In this document: positions 9,676 to 23,068 of the stretch, piece by piece
How the letters are laid out: every line of letters begins with the position of its first letter
Position numbering within the stretch: position 1 is the first letter of the stretch
Assembly (NCBI GenBank): GCA_963766885.1
Contig: CAVYBO010000002.1
Coordinates: 175,141 to 239,140 of the forward strand
Direction of reading: 5' to 3'
Source of the DNA: an uncultured bacterium
Lineage (GTDB): Bacteria > Patescibacteriota > Minisyncoccia > Phycocordibacterales > CAIRYW01
Length of the DNA: 64,000 nt
Made by a program: the position numbers and the translations under genes
The notes under the pieces: generated by a model
The model's input: only the letters and a program-made list of their open reading frames with translations
What the model was told of the DNA's origin: nothing
The model's database searches: none

Positions 9676-9707
9676 AAAACCAGATGAGCTGGACTAACCT
9701 TAATTAA

Positions 9708-10096
9708 TTAAGGATTGTTTGAATTTAGGAATGTGCTGACAGTTAAACCATCTTTATTACAAATATCTGACTCATTTGAAGCACTCACACCAGTATTGCT
9801 TTGCGAGTCATTAATCATGACCTGACTTGCACTAGAACATGAAGTAGCAGCATTGATCATATCCTGAGCAGCTAGAGTATAGGGCTCTATATTAGAATTA
9901 CTATTGGAGTTAGATAAAAAACTAGCGTATGTAAGAGCTAGATTTGTTGCGTCTGAATCGTTTTTGTCAAAGATATTTTTTGCTTTTAAAAATTCACTTT
10001 GGGCAGTATAGGTTTCGCCAAGATCATAATCATCTATACCTTCATTGAAGTCAGCTATACCACCATTATTAAATGACAGCCAGATAGTATTTAAAT
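9708..10096 (-). pseudogene. 3' fragment of a secreted Ser/Asn-rich protein gene lacking a start; 5' part is probably the ORF at 12466..12861 across the inserted element
   Basis: Open frame of about 125 codons (…NGGIADFNEGIDDYDLGETYTAQSEF…NSNNP*) with no ATG near its 5' end. It is bounded upstream by an in-frame stop lying within the inverted repeat at 10097..10125. Confidence 0.4.
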
Positions 10097-10394
10097 TAGG
10101 GAACTATATACAATACTACCCTAATAAATAAACCCTACAACAATCACCATAATGACTACCCAAATAACAAGACCTATAATGATATTATTTTCAGTTATCA
10201 CTTCCTTTTTTGACTTTGGAAACAGCCAATGGATAAATTTAACAAAGTAATTTATAAGTATCATAATTATTTCTTCTTAGCTTTTAATTTTCTCCCTCTC
10301 CTTGTATCTTTTTTTGAGATAGCAATAATACCTAACGCCTCGTTAAAGGTTTCTTTTATGGGGTCGTGCTTTTTTATTATAGGTCTACCTCTTT

Positions 10395-11387
10395 TCATGC
10401 GGTTAAAGTCTTATAAGACATTTTACCACTTTTGGAGATACCTTGCACAGCACCCGCGAACAAGTCTTGTAAGTCTGCGTTGCGATTATTGAAACGATAG
10501 ACAAATTCATCTACATATCGCTGTAAGTGTTTCTTGCTCATAGAGTGATATGTTCCATGATAGCCACGCTTAAACAAAGCCCAAAAACTTTCTGCGCTGT
10601 TGGAGTGTATATCACCTCGTACATACTCATTCTTGCCATGTCTTACTACGCCATGATTGAAATGCTTTTTGAGCTTCATGTAGGAAAGAAAATCATCAGT
10701 GTAGACATTACTTCCTTTCTCCACATTTTCAAGGATATGTTTCTCAATCGTGCTGACTTTTACATCAGGAACAACTTTTGCCCTTACTTCGCCACCACGC
10801 TGAACAAGACCCATAACCGCAGTTTTCGTTTGTGTGCTTCTACCTTGAACATGTTTTGTTCTCTTGTTCCAATGCTTATTCTTTTCCTTTCCGCCGATGT
10901 ATGTTTCGTCAGTTTCTACCGAACCAAATAGTTTCCCTTTGTTTTGCTTCATAGCTTCTCTTATGCGGTGGTCAATGAACCAAGCTGTCTTTTGAGTGCA
11001 ACCAACTTGTTCTGCAAGCTCAATAGAGGATATACCTTTTTTGCGAGTAGAAAGTAAATATATAGCGATAAACCATTTTTGCATGGAAATTTTGCTCTCA
11101 CCAAATAATGTTCCAGTTTTAATTGTGAAGTCCCTCTTGCATTTATCACAGCGAAATCTTTTATGGTCTGCAAAGCGCATAATCCTATTGTGTCCGCAGT
11201 GAGGACAATACTCTCCATCTTTGAAGCGCATAGACTCAAAGTAATCACGACACACTTTCTCGTCTTTGAAATATCCCATGAACTCTGCTAAATTTTTGAA
11301 GTCTTTTATCATGCAATAAGTATATTCTATATGTTTAGGGTAGTCAAGTCTAATAATTAATATAAAATAGATACTTAAAAAAGTCAA
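10395..11387 (-). CDS. IS1595-family (ISXO2-like) DDE transposase with N-terminal zinc ribbon
   Basis: CPHCGHNRIMRF…FRCDKCKRDF zinc ribbon followed by an ISXO2-like transposase core (…KHWNKRTKHVQGRS…YTDDFLSY…HSNSAESFWALFKRGYHGTYHSMSKKHLQRYVDEF). Confidence 0.8.
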   Translation of the reverse strand: MTFLSIYFILIIRLDYPKHIEYTYCMIKDFKNLAEFMGYFKDEKVCRDYFESMRFKDGEYCPHCGHNRIMRFADHKRFRCDKCKRDFTIKTGTLFGESKISMQKWFIAIYLLSTRKKGISSIELAEQVGCTQKTAWFIDHRIREAMKQNKGKLFGSVETDETYIGGKEKNKHWNKRTKHVQGRSTQTKTAVMGLVQRGGEVRAKVVPDVKVSTIEKHILENVEKGSNVYTDDFLSYMKLKKHFNHGVVRHGKNEYVRGDIHSNSAESFWALFKRGYHGTYHSMSKKHLQRYVDEFVYRFNNRNADLQDLFAGAVQGISKSGKMSYKTLTA

Positions 11388-11476
11388 TTAATAATCCACA
11401 TTAATACCTAGCATGATACTTGACATATTAAGTAGAATGAATTACAATGACATGGTAATTTAGAAAGTCAATGTAC

Positions 11477-11558
11477 TGCCCCGAGTGGGACTTGAACCCG
11501 CATTCCGCCAGGAACTCGTTTTCAAAACGAGCGCGTCTACCAGTTTCGCCATCGGGGC
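11477..11558 (-). tRNA. tRNA-Ser (anticodon TGA), long variable arm
   Basis: Hand-folded cloverleaf: acceptor GCCCCGA/TCGGGGC, anticodon stem CTCGT/ACGAG with loop TTTGAAA, 12-nt variable arm. The T-stem has one C·A mismatch. Confidence 0.7.
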
Positions 11559-11690
11559 ATTACGCTGACTTCCTAGAATTAGTTGAGTGCTTTGTTCTGG
11601 TATCGTGTTATCTATTCAGTTCCATTATGGTCATCGACCATACCTCTGATTAGGTTCGATACCAGAGCAAAATATTCAACTCAGTAAAAA

Positions 11691-12086
11691 TTAACCAACC
11701 CCTTGCTCTGTTGAGTTAGGGGTTTCAGTTTTTGAACGTAAACGATATGTACCACGCTTTCCTTCTACACGCTCGAGTTTCTTTGCGTTATCAACCAAAT
11801 AAGTTGTGCGCAGAGAAATTGTTTCTTTGCTAGGGGAAAAATTGTATTTTGACGCTATGTGTTTAAAAATAGCTTCAGTATTAAACATCTGTAAAGGGTT
11901 TTCACCAAAGAGCTTCAAAATAGCTTCTTTGTAATCAAACCCATCAGGTTCAGGACTTATTTCTTGAAATTGAACAGATGCCAACTCATTCAGTTCGGTC
12001 TCTCGTTCTTTTATTTCTGCTCTGAGGATATTTATTCTATCAACGAGATCGAAAGCACTTCTAATTTTTGGGCGGTTATTTGTCAT
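11691..12086 (-). CDS. hypothetical protein (cargo of the IR-bounded element)
   Basis: 131-aa ORF with coiled-coil-like N-terminus, followed by a hairpin and T-run. Confidence 0.4.
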   Translation of the reverse strand: MTNNRPKIRSAFDLVDRINILRAEIKERETELNELASVQFQEISPEPDGFDYKEAILKLFGENPLQMFNTEAIFKHIASKYNFSPSKETISLRTTYLVDNAKKLERVEGKRGTYRLRSKTETPNSTEQGVG

Positions 12087-12272
12087 GCAATAAGAATAGC
12101 AGAAATAAAGTAGGAATGCAATGTAAAAGTAGGAGAAATAAGATAGTATAATACATTTTTTCTCACCATTCTTGTAGTAAACTTAATAAAAACCCTTATT
12201 TTAAGCTGTTTTTGACACAATCATATTTTTGTATCTTGATGTGGATATAGTTTAAAGTACTGAGAAATCTTG

Positions 12273-12281
12273 CTACAATTA
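12273..12281 (+). promoter_or_regulatory. extended -10 promoter (TGcTACAAT) upstream of the small ORF 12310..12462
   Basis: TGnTACAAT about 30 bp upstream of an ATG preceded by AAGGAG. Confidence 0.35.
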
Positions 12282-12309
12282 AGAAAATTAAAAGCTAAGG
12301 AGAAATAAT

Positions 12310-12462
12310 ATGTTATCAATAATTTTGATTTTGGTTGTTGTAAATATGATACTTGGATTTTTGTGGGTAAGAGGAATAAATCGGGGTCTTCACGTCATTG
12401 GAGATGCTCTTGCGGAGATAAAAGAAAAGACCGACAAATTAGGAACGTTTAATTATAAATAG
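12310..12462 (+). CDS. small single-TM membrane protein (50 aa), not in the ORF track
   Basis: Strong SD AAGGAG 7 nt upstream of the ATG. MLSIILILVVVNMILGFLWV hydrophobic helix followed by a charged tail. Confidence 0.4.
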   Translation: MLSIILILVVVNMILGFLWVRGINRGLHVIGDALAEIKEKTDKLGTFNYK

Positions 12463-12465
12463 TTT

Positions 12466-12861
12466 TTAGGGTAACTTTGTATATAGTTCCCTTAAATTAT
12501 TATAGAACCCTGTTTCTTGTTCTTTAAGTAAATCTGCAGGAGATGGTGTCTGTATTGATTGACTTTGTACAGGTTGAACTGGTTGAGCAATAACTGGTGT
12601 TGGCACAGAAACAGGAATATTCGGAACAGGCTGTGGAATTGCAACATTTACAACAGTTTGAGTATTTACCGTTGCACTTTGAAGAGGGTTGTTCTTTGCT
12701 TCTTTTGCTGATGTCGTCGCAGAGAGCGTGGTTTGCACTGTAGTCGTTGCTAATATATTAGTTGTTGATGTTGAAACAACAGATTGAGAATGAAAAGCTC
12801 CAGTAAAAGCCATAAATGCCGCTACAATTCCTATACTCAAACTATGAAAGAAATTAAACAT
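12466..12861 (-). CDS. N-terminal portion of a secreted Thr/Pro/Gln-rich protein, apparently truncated by the inserted element
   Basis: Signal or TM peptide followed by low-complexity sequence. The stop codon lies inside the right inverted repeat. Confidence 0.4.
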   Translation of the reverse strand: MFNFFHSLSIGIVAAFMAFTGAFHSQSVVSTSTTNILATTTVQTTLSATTSAKEAKNNPLQSATVNTQTVVNVAIPQPVPNIPVSVPTPVIAQPVQPVQSQSIQTPSPADLLKEQETGFYNNLRELYTKLP

Positions 12862-22734: not shown

Positions 22735-22894
22735 TTTATTTTAATTAATTTCGAGTAAAGAAAAAGCACCACAAAAACCGCTCAGGCTTTTTGTGGTGCT
22801 TGGATTTAATTAAAACTGGTCCAAATAGATTTTTGATTACTTAAAAGCATGGGATTTATTTCTAACACTTTTATTATACATTTATAACAAAATA

Positions 22895-22983
22895 CGGAAA
22901 GGGAGGGATTTGAACCCTCGATCCGCCTTTCGGCGGATGCAGGTTTTCGAAACCTGTGCATTCAACCGCTCTGCCACCTTTCC
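22895..22983 (-). tRNA. tRNA-Ser (anticodon CGA), long variable arm
   Basis: GGAAAGGTGGCAGAGCGGTTGAATGCA…CAGGT-TTCGAAA-ACCTG…; T arm GAGGG/CCCTC, acceptor GGAAAGG/CCTTTCC, discriminator G. Confidence 0.8.
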
Positions 22984-23068
22984 AAAAATTATACTGTGCA
23001 AAAATCCTAACAGCTTTTTGCCAAATTTACAAAAAATTGCTATATTTTGCTTTGTCTTAAAGCATAGC

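Follow-up and report, generated by a model that had tools for sequence, protein, structure and literature searches.

The stretch of DNA analyzed here (the window) covers 64 kb of a ~596-kb contig from an uncultured bacterium of the Patescibacteriota and carries an insertion sequence (IS) of the IS1595 family with a tRNA gene inside it. Of the host tRNA set, the part that lies in these 64 kb is visible. The IS is a single, structurally intact element of 2,395 bp (window positions 10098 to 12492) that is bounded by terminal inverted repeats (IRs) and moves as a whole unit from one IR to the other. In the direction of its transposase, which lies on the minus strand, it consists of the right IR, the small open reading frame (ORF) orf50, the accessory gene ORF131, a long hairpin, a tRNA enclosed in a stem, promoter-like sites, the transposase gene, orf43, orf47, and the left IR (Table 1). 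A first-pass annotation, made from the letters of the sequence, had proposed an IR-bounded IS1595-family element of ~2.4 kb with passenger genes. That proposal held, with the IRs corrected to the positions in Table 1, and the hairpin, the ORF of 131 amino acids (aa), and the 50-aa membrane ORF preceded by AAGGAG that it had listed are all present. It had overlooked orf43, orf47, an internal 28-nucleotide (nt) inverted repeat, and the 15-nt stem around the tRNA.

Table 1. Features of the IS1595-family element and of the gene that it interrupts, in window coordinates
Feature	Position	Strand	Remarks
C-terminal half of interrupted secreted ORF	9708..10097	-	frame open up to the IR; includes the left TAAATT
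Left target-site duplication TAAATT	10092..10097	.	identical to 12493-12498
Left terminal inverted repeat	10098..10130	+	begins AGGGAACTATATACAATACTACCCTAA; 33-nt pair at 85%
orf47, small hydrophobic ORF	10121..10264	-	47 aa, outward-facing to the left end
Internal 28-nt repeat	10266..10293	.	ribosome-binding-site region of orf47; inverted partner 12282-12309, 96%
orf43, 43-aa basic ORF (KRGRP... FNEALGI)	10267..10398	-	start overlaps transposase stop (ATGA)
IS1595-family transposase, 305 aa, intact	10395..11312	-	zinc ribbon and DDE domain
Two promoter-like sites, TTGACT-17-TATATT and TTGACT-17-TATACT	11319..11387	-	consensus scan; upstream of transposase ATG
3' arm of tRNA-enclosing stem (TACATTGACTTTCTA)	11461..11475	-	pairs with 11561-11575
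Class-II tRNA, anticodon UGA	11477..11558	-	G1-C72, C2-G71, A73, Leu-type D-arm; CCA not encoded
5' arm of tRNA-enclosing stem (TAGGAAGTCAGCGTA)	11561..11575	-	15 nt
Long hairpin H1, ~100 nt	11581..11681	-	between ORF131 and tRNA
ORF131, accessory protein	11691..12086	-	N-terminal long helix/coiled coil and C-terminal winged-helix domain (predicted)
Internal 28-nt repeat	12282..12309	.	ribosome-binding-site region of orf50
orf50, small hydrophobic ORF	12310..12462	+	50 aa, outward-facing to the right end; AAGGAG 7 nt upstream
Right terminal inverted repeat	12460..12492	-	partner of 10098-10130
Right target-site duplication TAAATT	12493..12498	.	6 bp, abuts right IR
N-terminal half of interrupted secreted ORF	12493..12861	-	now reads into the IR, stop at 12466

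The two IRs are imperfect and 27 to 33 bp long. The right end, read as the reverse complement of 12466-12492, is AGGGAACTATATACAAAGTTACCCTAA, and its alignment with the left end shows a perfect core of 16 nt, AGGGAACTATATACAA (15 nt in the first-pass annotation), followed by 3 mismatches and 8 further matches, TACCCTAA. This core occurs exactly twice in the window, in inverted orientation, and TAAATT flanks both repeats. When we removed 10098-12498 in silico, 12861..12499 fused in frame with 10097..9708 into one ORF of 250 aa, whose product has an N-terminal hydrophobic, signal-like segment and is of low complexity, rich in Ser, Thr, Asn, and Gln; the suspicion that the flanking ORFs are halves of one secreted gene was thus borne out. 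Because of the IRs, the flanking TAAATT, and the in-frame restoration of the target ORF, we read the locus as a transposon insertion with a 6-bp target duplication. The insertion hit one secreted-protein ORFan gene and duplicated TAAATT. The empty site is predicted to have the junction 10097|12499, with ...GTATTTAAATT joined to ATTATAGAACC...

By every protein criterion, the element itself classifies as a member of IS1595 and as a "transporter IS," the name given to IS1595 members with passenger genes (Siguier, Gagnevin & Chandler 2009, as cited in PMC3129680 and PMC8101967). As the first-pass annotation had it, the transposase is of the IS1595 zinc-ribbon DDE type: it matched the Pfam families Zn_ribbon_IS1595 (PF12760, 1.4e-10, residues 17-61) and DDE_Tnp_IS1595 (PF12762, 4.8e-44, over the full length, 2-153/153), and it scored 206 bits against a cut-off of 75 with the NCBIfam model NF033547 (transpos_IS1595). 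D135, D206, and E241 align with positions that at least 97% of 49 relatives conserve, Cys36, Cys39, and Cys55 are kept, and every residue conserved across the 49 is present. The gene is one uninterrupted, unframeshifted ORF. The DDE transposase would bind both IRs and move the unit between them, by either a cut-and-paste or a replicative route.

More than 7,900 transposase relatives were found at E ≤ 1e-20, the closest of which is 76% identical; several are named as proteins from Paceibacterota or "Pacebacteria" metagenome-assembled genomes. We gathered loci of relatives (designated by L numbers) from species-representative genomes (12), from metagenomes (65), and by exact-protein look-up (a dozen). 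This search for further copies of the element yielded ~30 related elements from the candidate phyla radiation (CPR)/Patescibacteria with both ends on the contig, and all of them share the end consensus NGGGAACTATATAC-N5-TACCCT and have identical 6-bp flanks. Duplications of 6 bp were seen around >25 relatives, including L002-L013 and ~20 metagenome loci; examples are TATTTA, TATACC, AATCAG, ATAAAA, TTCGCT, TCTTGG, TTCTTT, and CTTAAT and, further, ATTAAA, AAATTG, GTTGAT, AAAGAA, CTTGAC, AGATAA, and TTTGAG. The related elements are 2.2 to 3.6 kb in size. One element of 3,290 bp lies without a mismatch at both L020:2523-5812 and L022:2523-5812, in unrelated flanks, which implies that the whole IR-to-IR unit, tRNA included, moves.

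These relatives also bear on a reading that the first-pass annotation had kept in reserve, in which the repeats are coincidental and a conventional IS of ~1.1 kb lies beside a resident host tRNA-Ser and a host gene for a 131-aa protein. In favor of this reading, IS1595 members are usually single-gene elements with 8-bp duplications (PMC8101967), and the locus is explicable without any short-range IRs around the transposase. We nevertheless reject it as exceedingly improbable. The 16-nt core stands at just these two sites of the window, the 6-bp duplication is perfect, and the frame is restored exactly; moreover, the same ends with 6-bp duplications enclose the same gene set, with the same tRNA, in the ~30 relatives, homologues of ORF131 were found only inside such elements, and the tRNA belongs to an IS-specific family and not with the host tRNA-Ser. 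An 8-bp direct repeat, AATACCTA, that had been listed with this reading plays no role.

We determined to which family the tRNA belongs. ARAGORN called it at 11476-11559(-) with anticodon TGA, and the 8-bp acceptor stem and G discriminator of that call are an artefact in which the T of the 5' leader is counted as paired with A73. Alignment with the relatives sets G1 at 11558 and A73 at 11477. In most relatives, ARAGORN reported a "tRNA-Thr(TGT)" of 84 to 92 nt. Rfam model RF00005 scored the window tRNA at 53.2 bits, against a threshold of 29, and the relatives at 50 to 56 bits. In all, 25 other distinct elements carry the tRNA. A covariance model of the IS tRNAs, built from 24 distinct sequences, recovered it in every ARAGORN-positive element and in four loci that ARAGORN had missed (L005, L038, L040, and L042), which are one element with the same site and duplication in four samples. 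With this family model, the IS tRNAs scored 76.6 to 96 bits (80.9 for the window copy), the best non-IS match, a genuine CPR tRNA-Leu(CAA), scored 59.6 bits, and the tRNA-Ser(CGA) of the window scored 47.2 bits. Across the 24 sequences, 98.5% of the cells of the cloverleaf are paired and 18 of the 20 pairs have changed on both sides; none of 500 shuffles and no slid register came close. U8, A14, A15, G18, G19, A21, U48, and A73 are invariant in all 24, and a 7-nt anticodon loop with A37 is preserved in the family. Judged by these comparisons, the tRNA is a conserved part of the IS clade and not a captured host tRNA-Ser. The first-pass annotation had taken a tRNA cargo to be unusual for the family; within this clade it is the rule, with the anticodon UGU, and UGA is a derived single-base change here.

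Next, we compared the body of the tRNA with bacterial isotypes. Like tRNA-Leu, it has G1-C72, C2-G71, A73, A14 (U8:A14), A15-U48, a 3-bp D stem (D-arm GGCGGAAYUGGUAKACGC), and a short variable arm of 4 bp. In E. coli genomes, tRNA-Leu genes were the only ones matched, through an exact match of 23 nt in the D-arm. Unlike tRNA-Leu, it has the anticodon UGU or UGA (UCU in two degenerate copies) and never NAG or NAA, and its U36-A37-A38 context is typical of readers of ANN codons. Bacterial tRNA-Thr is marked by G35-U36, the acceptor pairs G1-C72 and C2-G71, and a class-I body with a short variable loop. The relatives have G35-U36 and mostly G1-C72 (21 of 24) and C2-G71 (18 of 24), but on a class-II body; the window copy, with A36, lacks the anticodon determinant. 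The host tRNA-Ser(CGA) (22894-22984) differs from the window IS tRNA at pair 2-71 (G2-C71 versus C2-G71), pair 3-70 (A3-U70 versus C3-G70), the discriminator (G73 versus A73), pair 15-48 (G15-C48 versus A15-U48), and the extra arm (7 bp versus 4 bp), and the host tRNA-Ser(GGA) likewise has G73, G2-C71, and a longer arm. Most host tRNA genes also lack an encoded CCA. Of the designation tRNA-Ser(TGA) in the first-pass annotation, the anticodon stands (UGA by ARAGORN) and the body does not: only the anticodon fits bacterial tRNA-Ser, so that on these features "tRNA-Ser" is an anticodon-only label for a body of tRNA-Leu type. The A15-U48 pair is said to have served Asahara et al. as a criterion of tRNA-Leu in 1993. 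By identity rules taken from E. coli, which may not be those of CPR hosts, A73 and A14 are the basis of Leu identity, seryl-tRNA synthetase (SerRS) is kept off tRNA-Leu by the antideterminant C2-G71 and leucyl-tRNA synthetase (LeuRS) off tRNA-Ser by the antideterminant G73, and Thr identity lies in acceptor pairs and the anticodon (Giegé & Eriani 2023, PMC9976931). SerRS does not read the anticodon (PMC9976931, PMC7609411).

All 25 other intact sequences have UGU as their anticodon, even where positions 32, 33, or 37 vary; the window copy alone has UGA, through a change at position 36 (U36A). In a quick neighbor-joining distance tree of the transposases, computed without support values, the window element is nested among the UGU bearers L019, L021 (= L020), L015 (= L014), and L018 (= L017). 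Because it sits inside this UGU-bearing group, UGA is the derived state. In addition, the T stem of the window copy contains a C.A mismatch, and just one other of the 24 tRNAs has an unpaired 50-64. The element's own genes use ACA at 27.5 and UCA at 6.9 per 1000 codons, against 18.1 per 1000 for UCA in host genes. Because they favor ACA and avoid UCA, the change to UGA appears recent on the scale of codon-usage drift.

Could the window copy nonetheless work as a tRNA-Ser(UGA), charged by SerRS through its extra arm and supplying or supplementing the decoding of UCA by the host, so that the element is hard to lose? In favor are its class-II build with an extra arm, the indifference of SerRS to the anticodon, a UCA usage of ~18 per 1000 codons in host genes, and a cloverleaf that is otherwise intact and scores inside the family range. 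The question whether the genome has another tRNA-Ser(UGA) was answered for the 64-kb window, in which ARAGORN found none; tRNA-Ser(CGA) is present, as described above. We nevertheless consider a working tRNA-Ser very unlikely. SerRS of E. coli is deterred by C2-G71, A73 replaces G73, the variable arm has 4 bp against 7 bp in the host, the D-arm and A15-U48 are of Leu type where the host has G15-C48, the T stem has its C.A mismatch, and element genes avoid UCA. In addition, ~90% of the genome lies outside the window, and a canonical tRNA-Ser(UGA) is probably encoded there.

The same deviations can be read as decay. In a sister lineage that includes the nearest relatives with ORF131 (L084:3031-3111, also L085 and L086, and L087:557-625), the tRNA has drifted, with the anticodon loop CUUCUAA (UCU) and scores of 35 bits in L084 and 20 bits in L087. 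The L084 tRNA has no G18G19 and no C56, its T-loop is UUUGAAU, and position 73 is C; ORF131, the hairpin, and the flanking stem persist in both L084 and L087. This may reflect either decay or a non-translational use of the cloverleaf. By analogy, the window tRNA may be a decaying pseudogene of a family whose tRNA is functional, selection having lapsed in this lineage as in the sister clade. It is the sole UGA copy and has the rare unpaired 50-64, the sister clade shows both degeneration (L084, L087) and loss (L002, L026, L027, L053), and the codon usage of the element still suits UGU rather than UGA. On the other side, the deviations number just two. The remaining 19 pairs are intact, as are the elbow nucleotides, the hairpin, and the flanking stem; 80.9 bits falls inside the family range, and a C.A pair is tolerable. 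We regard a pseudogene as somewhat unlikely.

The tRNA does not stand by itself. Comparison of the relatives indicates that it belongs to a conserved module made up of an accessory gene, a hairpin of ~100 nt, and the tRNA in a stem formed by its flanks. The folding z score is -4.2 for the window hairpin and -7.1 for the 251-nt region that comprises hairpin, tRNA, and stem. A hairpin with a stem of 25 to 30 bp was present in all 17 relatives examined (z from -3.8 to -8.5), and in these 17 elements the 102 to 142 nt between the stop of the accessory gene and the tRNA, on the same strand, are filled by it. The hairpin stems vary in sequence between elements, and the apical parts can be sorted into a few sequence types, one of which is common to the window copy and L088; these two show compensatory stem changes, and their transposases are only 60% identical. 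Rfam 15 gave no family besides tRNA for the module in the window region or in 8 related loci (E ≤ 1). The stem around the tRNA has the consensus TTAGGAAGTCAA ... TTGACTTTCTAA in the relatives. Read on the tRNA-sense strand, its mismatches are G.U pairs, and compensatory substitutions occur in L008 and L043, which points to a stem at the RNA level. A T-box-like pairing of the anticodon with "ACA" in the internal loop of the hairpin was considered and dropped; the triplet is present in the window copy, L088, L003, L008, and L084 and absent from L010, L087, L004, L006, and L017.

The accessory gene is of two kinds, either of the coiled-coil and winged-helix family of ORF131 and ORF112 or, in many members, for a DUF5343 protein of ~250 aa (Pfam, 1.5e-12; e.g., L003:4605-5375 and L005:3043-3810). 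A profile comparison found ORF131 and DUF5343 unrelated (probability 1.2%). AlphaFold2 predicted for ORF131 a winged helix-turn-helix with helix-helix-helix-beta-hairpin topology (predicted local distance difference test score of 73), and Foldseek against the PDB returned only weak, nonsignificant matches, all of them DNA-binding winged helices; sequence searches of the PDB gave no match. The DUF5343 partner matched the PADLOC candidate defense family PDC-M34A (8.9e-11), and ORF131 and ORF112 had no PADLOC match. We found no publication mentioning DUF5343 in the full-text literature. Because the block may precede or follow the transposase and may lie on either strand, the module behaves as a cassette. 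Elements with the same ends and without the module form an outgroup (L009, L054-L062, L066), and a subclade within the tRNA-bearing clade also lacks it (L002, L026, L027, L053). Because the tRNA-less L002, L009, L026, and L066 have perfect duplications, the module appears dispensable for transposition and would be cargo, not transposition machinery. It would persist as a cargo or regulator that benefits the element or the host.

These features admit a non-translational role, in which cloverleaf, hairpin, and stem form one structured RNA that serves in cis as a processing, punctuation, or stabilizing signal or in trans as the ribonucleoprotein partner of the winged-helix or DUF5343 protein (a transposition regulator or a small addiction or defense cargo). 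Consistent with such a role are the constant order of accessory gene, hairpin, and stem-enclosed tRNA in a block that can lie on either side and strand of the transposase, the hairpin apex shared with L088, the cloverleaf, hairpin, and stem that L084 keeps without the elbow nucleotides and with UCU, the match of the DUF5343 partner to a candidate defense family, and the defense-like cargo of other relatives (the Dam-like methylase of L002 and the Schlafen/AlbA_2 ATPase of L016). An association of allo-tRNA-like genes with transposons or with toxin-antitoxin systems has been suggested earlier (PMC7609411). We consider this role unlikely but a serious rival, its main support being the tight architecture of the module and L084. 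The canonical nucleotides of the L-shape and the 7-nt loop with A37 are conserved in 24 of 24 tRNAs, and the triplet is fixed while its neighbors vary, which argues against a pure processing signal because such a signal would not need a conserved L-shape and a fixed anticodon. Neither the RNA nor ORF131 is covered by an Rfam family or a known defense model, and the absence of the module from tRNA-less relatives that have transposed implies that it is not a necessary cofactor of transposition.

Because the L-shape nucleotides, the 7-nt loop, A37, A73, the Leu identity set, and UGU are all conserved, the simplest reading is that the family tRNA would be a real, processed tRNA that pairs with ACA. 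As with host tRNAs, the transcript would be cut out by RNase P together with a 3' nuclease and would receive its CCA from the CCA-adding enzyme, and the mature tRNA would pair with ACA codons (UCA for the window copy). The conserved features would be those read by LeuRS, which ignores the anticodon, and threonyl-tRNA synthetase (ThrRS) would read G35-U36, making the tRNA a putative Leu/Thr chimera that either synthetase might charge. In the window copy, U36A would remove the ThrRS determinant, and C2-G71, A73, and the short arm would oppose SerRS. Most likely, then, the window copy would be either a low-activity, Leu-accepting reader of UCA or a decaying copy, and not a working tRNA-Ser.

We examined whether codon usage bears on this function. 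Across 41 distinct transposase genes, the 284 ACA codons fall opposite Thr (0.47) much as ACT, ACC, and ACG do, and Leu is outside the top six residues; recoding of ACA to Leu was thereby rejected for the transposase. ACA is enriched in element genes relative to the host flanks (odds ratio, 1.84; P = 1.5e-6), and so are GCA (2.05), GTA (1.86), CTA (1.85), and CCA (1.63), with a lower G+C content at third codon positions. ACA is thus no more enriched than other A-ending codons, and a codon compensation specific to the tRNA was rejected as an effect of composition.

Taken together, these results are very probably explained by an intact CPR transporter element of the IS1595 family that carries, as an heirloom, a module with a Leu-bodied tRNA, the window copy of which has mutated to UGA. 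A more ambitious version, which we hold to be distinctly unlikely, is that the chimera is kept as selected cargo. In it, a Leu body with a fixed Thr anticodon UGU (here Ser UGA) would be coexpressed with the winged-helix or DUF5343 protein and the hairpin, and it would deliberately mis-decode ACA or UCA as leucine, or act uncharged as a ribonucleoprotein switch, in an addiction, stress-response, or anti-phage device carried from place to place by a transposon.

Several observations weigh against our explanation. The first-pass annotation had proposed a comparison with an uninterrupted homologue or an empty site; protein searches and exact look-ups of the neighbors found neither. No homologue of the restored 250-aa protein was detected at E ≤ 0.001 in 5.8 billion proteins, exact look-ups with the neighbors ORF79 and LepB gave no record of an empty site, and the sole other contig with the proteins of the element (L001) has the same insertion. 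What supports the insertion is the duplication and the restoration of the frame. The duplication, 6 bp in >25 elements, differs from the usual 8 bp of IS1595 (PMC8101967); because that figure is described as "usual," we treat 6 bp as subgroup variation within IS1595 and not as exclusion from it. A Leu-charged tRNA would mistranslate the element's own genes, in which ACA aligns with Thr, and the enrichment of ACA is one of composition. The pattern of L084, in which the elbow is lost and cloverleaf, hairpin, and stem are kept, would fit a role as an RNA structure at least as well as decoding. Everything said here on the function of the tRNA is inferred from sequence, and with 64 kb of a ~596-kb genome visible, the window tRNA could be the only UCA reader of the host.

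We then compared the element with known systems. With the IS1595 family it has in common the zinc ribbon and DDE_Tnp_IS1595 domain, a single unframeshifted transposase gene, IRs with G-rich tips, a target duplication, and passenger genes. A zinc ribbon is found in all IS1595 groups except IS1016. The clade departs from the family in the 6-bp duplication, in the basic ORF that is conserved and coupled to the transposase stop, and in the clade-wide module of tRNA, hairpin, and accessory gene. Like tRNAs of phages, plasmids, and integrative elements, the IS tRNA is cloverleaf-competent with a normal elbow and anticodon loop, and the genes around it are more A/T-ending than those of the host. In contrast to such tRNAs, its carrier is an IS of 2 to 3 kb, it is a single species with one fixed anticodon, UGU, its body and anticodon are of different identities, and there is no tRNA-specific codon bias.

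The combination of a body for an anticodon-blind synthetase with a foreign anticodon is that of mistranslating tRNAs (anticodon variants of tRNA-Ser, -Ala, and -Leu) and allo-tRNAs (PMC7609411, PMC11028032, PMC11415595), although mischarging of the IS tRNA is putative. The nearest precedent is among the allo-tRNAs of Mukai et al. 2017 (as reviewed in PMC7609411): a pseudogene of allo-tRNA(UAU) overlaps a transposon ORF, and a transposon or toxin-antitoxin link was suggested (PMC7609411). Unlike allo-tRNAs, the IS tRNA has the standard 7/5 architecture of acceptor and T stems, not 8/4 or 9/3, and unlike mistranslating tRNAs, which are sporadic, it is conserved over a deep clade of mobile elements and sits in a hairpin-stem module beside a dedicated protein gene. 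The element also resembles IS200/IS605 with its omega-RNA, IS110 with its bridge RNA, and type III toxin-antitoxin systems with their RNA in that it encodes a conserved structured RNA beside a small protein gene. In contrast to these systems, it has a classical DDE transposase, and its RNA lies away from the element ends and is missing in relatives that are still able to transpose. The RNA showed no guide-like complementarity to ends or targets, and the resemblance is one of organization only. In searches of the full-text literature, we found neither an IS family described as having a conserved tRNA nor an IS-borne class-II tRNA(UGU); likewise, no class-II tRNA was found reported with a Thr anticodon, and no function for DUF5343. 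We know of no class-II tRNA-Thr.

Insertion sequences are commonly viewed as minimal, a transposase with two ends. The clade described here is spread across many CPR/Patescibacteria lineages and has retained a tRNA gene while diverging deeply, with transposases down to ~56% identity and every stem of the tRNA covaried. A Leu body with a foreign anticodon has been used experimentally to force mistranslation, since LeuRS ignores the anticodon. If the IS tRNA were charged with Leu, it would be a naturally mobile mistranslation device in genomes of ~600 kb with single-copy tRNA sets; if charged with Thr, it would be a class-II tRNA-Thr; and if uncharged, a new transposon-borne structured RNA with a protein partner. 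Were the mis-decoding reading true, this would be the first IS with a payload that acts on the genetic code. There is also a consequence for annotation. Anticodon-based callers will name these genes tRNA-Thr or tRNA-Ser and count them toward decoding capacity, possibly wrongly.

The remaining parts of the element are small. The promoter-like matches upstream of the transposase are not enriched over shuffled sequence; the second -10 box, which ends 6 nt before the ATG, would fit a leaderless mRNA. The starts of transposase and ORF131 (11305-11324 and 12079-12098) lie in a common 20-nt context, TATwCTTATTGCATGA, that is 90% identical; neither has a Shine-Dalgarno sequence, and in both a -10-like TATACT or TATTCT ends 6 nt before the ATG. 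This arrangement suggests that both genes may have leaderless mRNAs. Homologues of orf43 follow the transposase in most relatives (tblastn) and have the motifs RGRK/RGRP and F(D/N)EVLGAI; orf43 has the look of an AT-hook-like DNA-binding peptide and might assist transposition as an accessory factor. Outward-facing small membrane ORFs like orf47 and orf50 are present at the ends of many relatives. ORF131, orf43, orf47, and orf50 had no significant match in Pfam, PHROGs, NCBIfam, or PADLOC. The internal 28-nt repeat spans the ribosome-binding-site region and start of orf47 and orf50, the peptides of which are not similar. As a family feature it was rejected, being found only in the window copy and, in a weak 15-nt version, in L013; it may stem from gene conversion between the ends or be a shared regulatory site.

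Two nonautonomous copies of 997 bp that keep the tRNA, L080:3486-4482 and L081:3486-4482, are 99.8% identical and lie on one 378-kb contig (Ga0207952_1000011), ~48 kb apart and in the same orientation. Each consists of an IR, the tRNA and hairpin, a 58-aa remnant of the transposase, orf43, and an IR. Their flanks are swapped, AAATTT[el]AACCTA ... AACCTA[el]AAATTT (el, element), which hints at a cointegrate, formed by replicative transposition or by recombination between copies on two replicons, and an integrated plasmid or phage may account for the 48 kb that separate them. At L090:4260-4329, two element ends face each other 70 bp apart in flanks that form no clean duplication; this pair could be a minimal IR-IR miniature derivative or a deletion remnant.

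Other cargo was seen in relatives that are tRNA-less or only partly covered by their contigs. L002 (L002:5325-8299) carries a Dam-like adenine methylase and a 178-aa ORF, possibly a mini restriction-modification pair, and at L016 (L016:10-1380) a gene for a Schlafen/AlbA_2-HATPase_c_4 ATPase adjoins the transposase. By their gene content, IS of this clade seem to ferry small accessory genes of the defense type. At L017:7250-10918, a relative adjoins a run of small ORFs, including RusA, that is prophage- or phage-like, and CPR phages may spread these IS. Searches of viral contigs found no relatives of DUF5343, and the IR pattern occurred in 4 contigs, as one known element and otherwise solo ends.

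As to other tRNAs near the relatives, a tRNA-Ile with anticodon UAU is encoded in host genomes at L003:8647-8721, L005:6117-6189, and L029:7069-7142, a trait that, like the missing CCA, matters when tRNA sets of these genomes are judged. An array of 11 tRNA genes (L055:14-1919) lies ~2 kb upstream of a tRNA-less relative of the IS, in the order two called Asn, Val, Ile, Cys, Leu, an 82-nt "Thr-UGU," Val, Thr, Leu, and Met. Several of these differ from the length expected of their isotype (a 75-nt Leu-UAA and the 82-nt Thr-UGU), and the array may be a tRNA island of a phage or plasmid.

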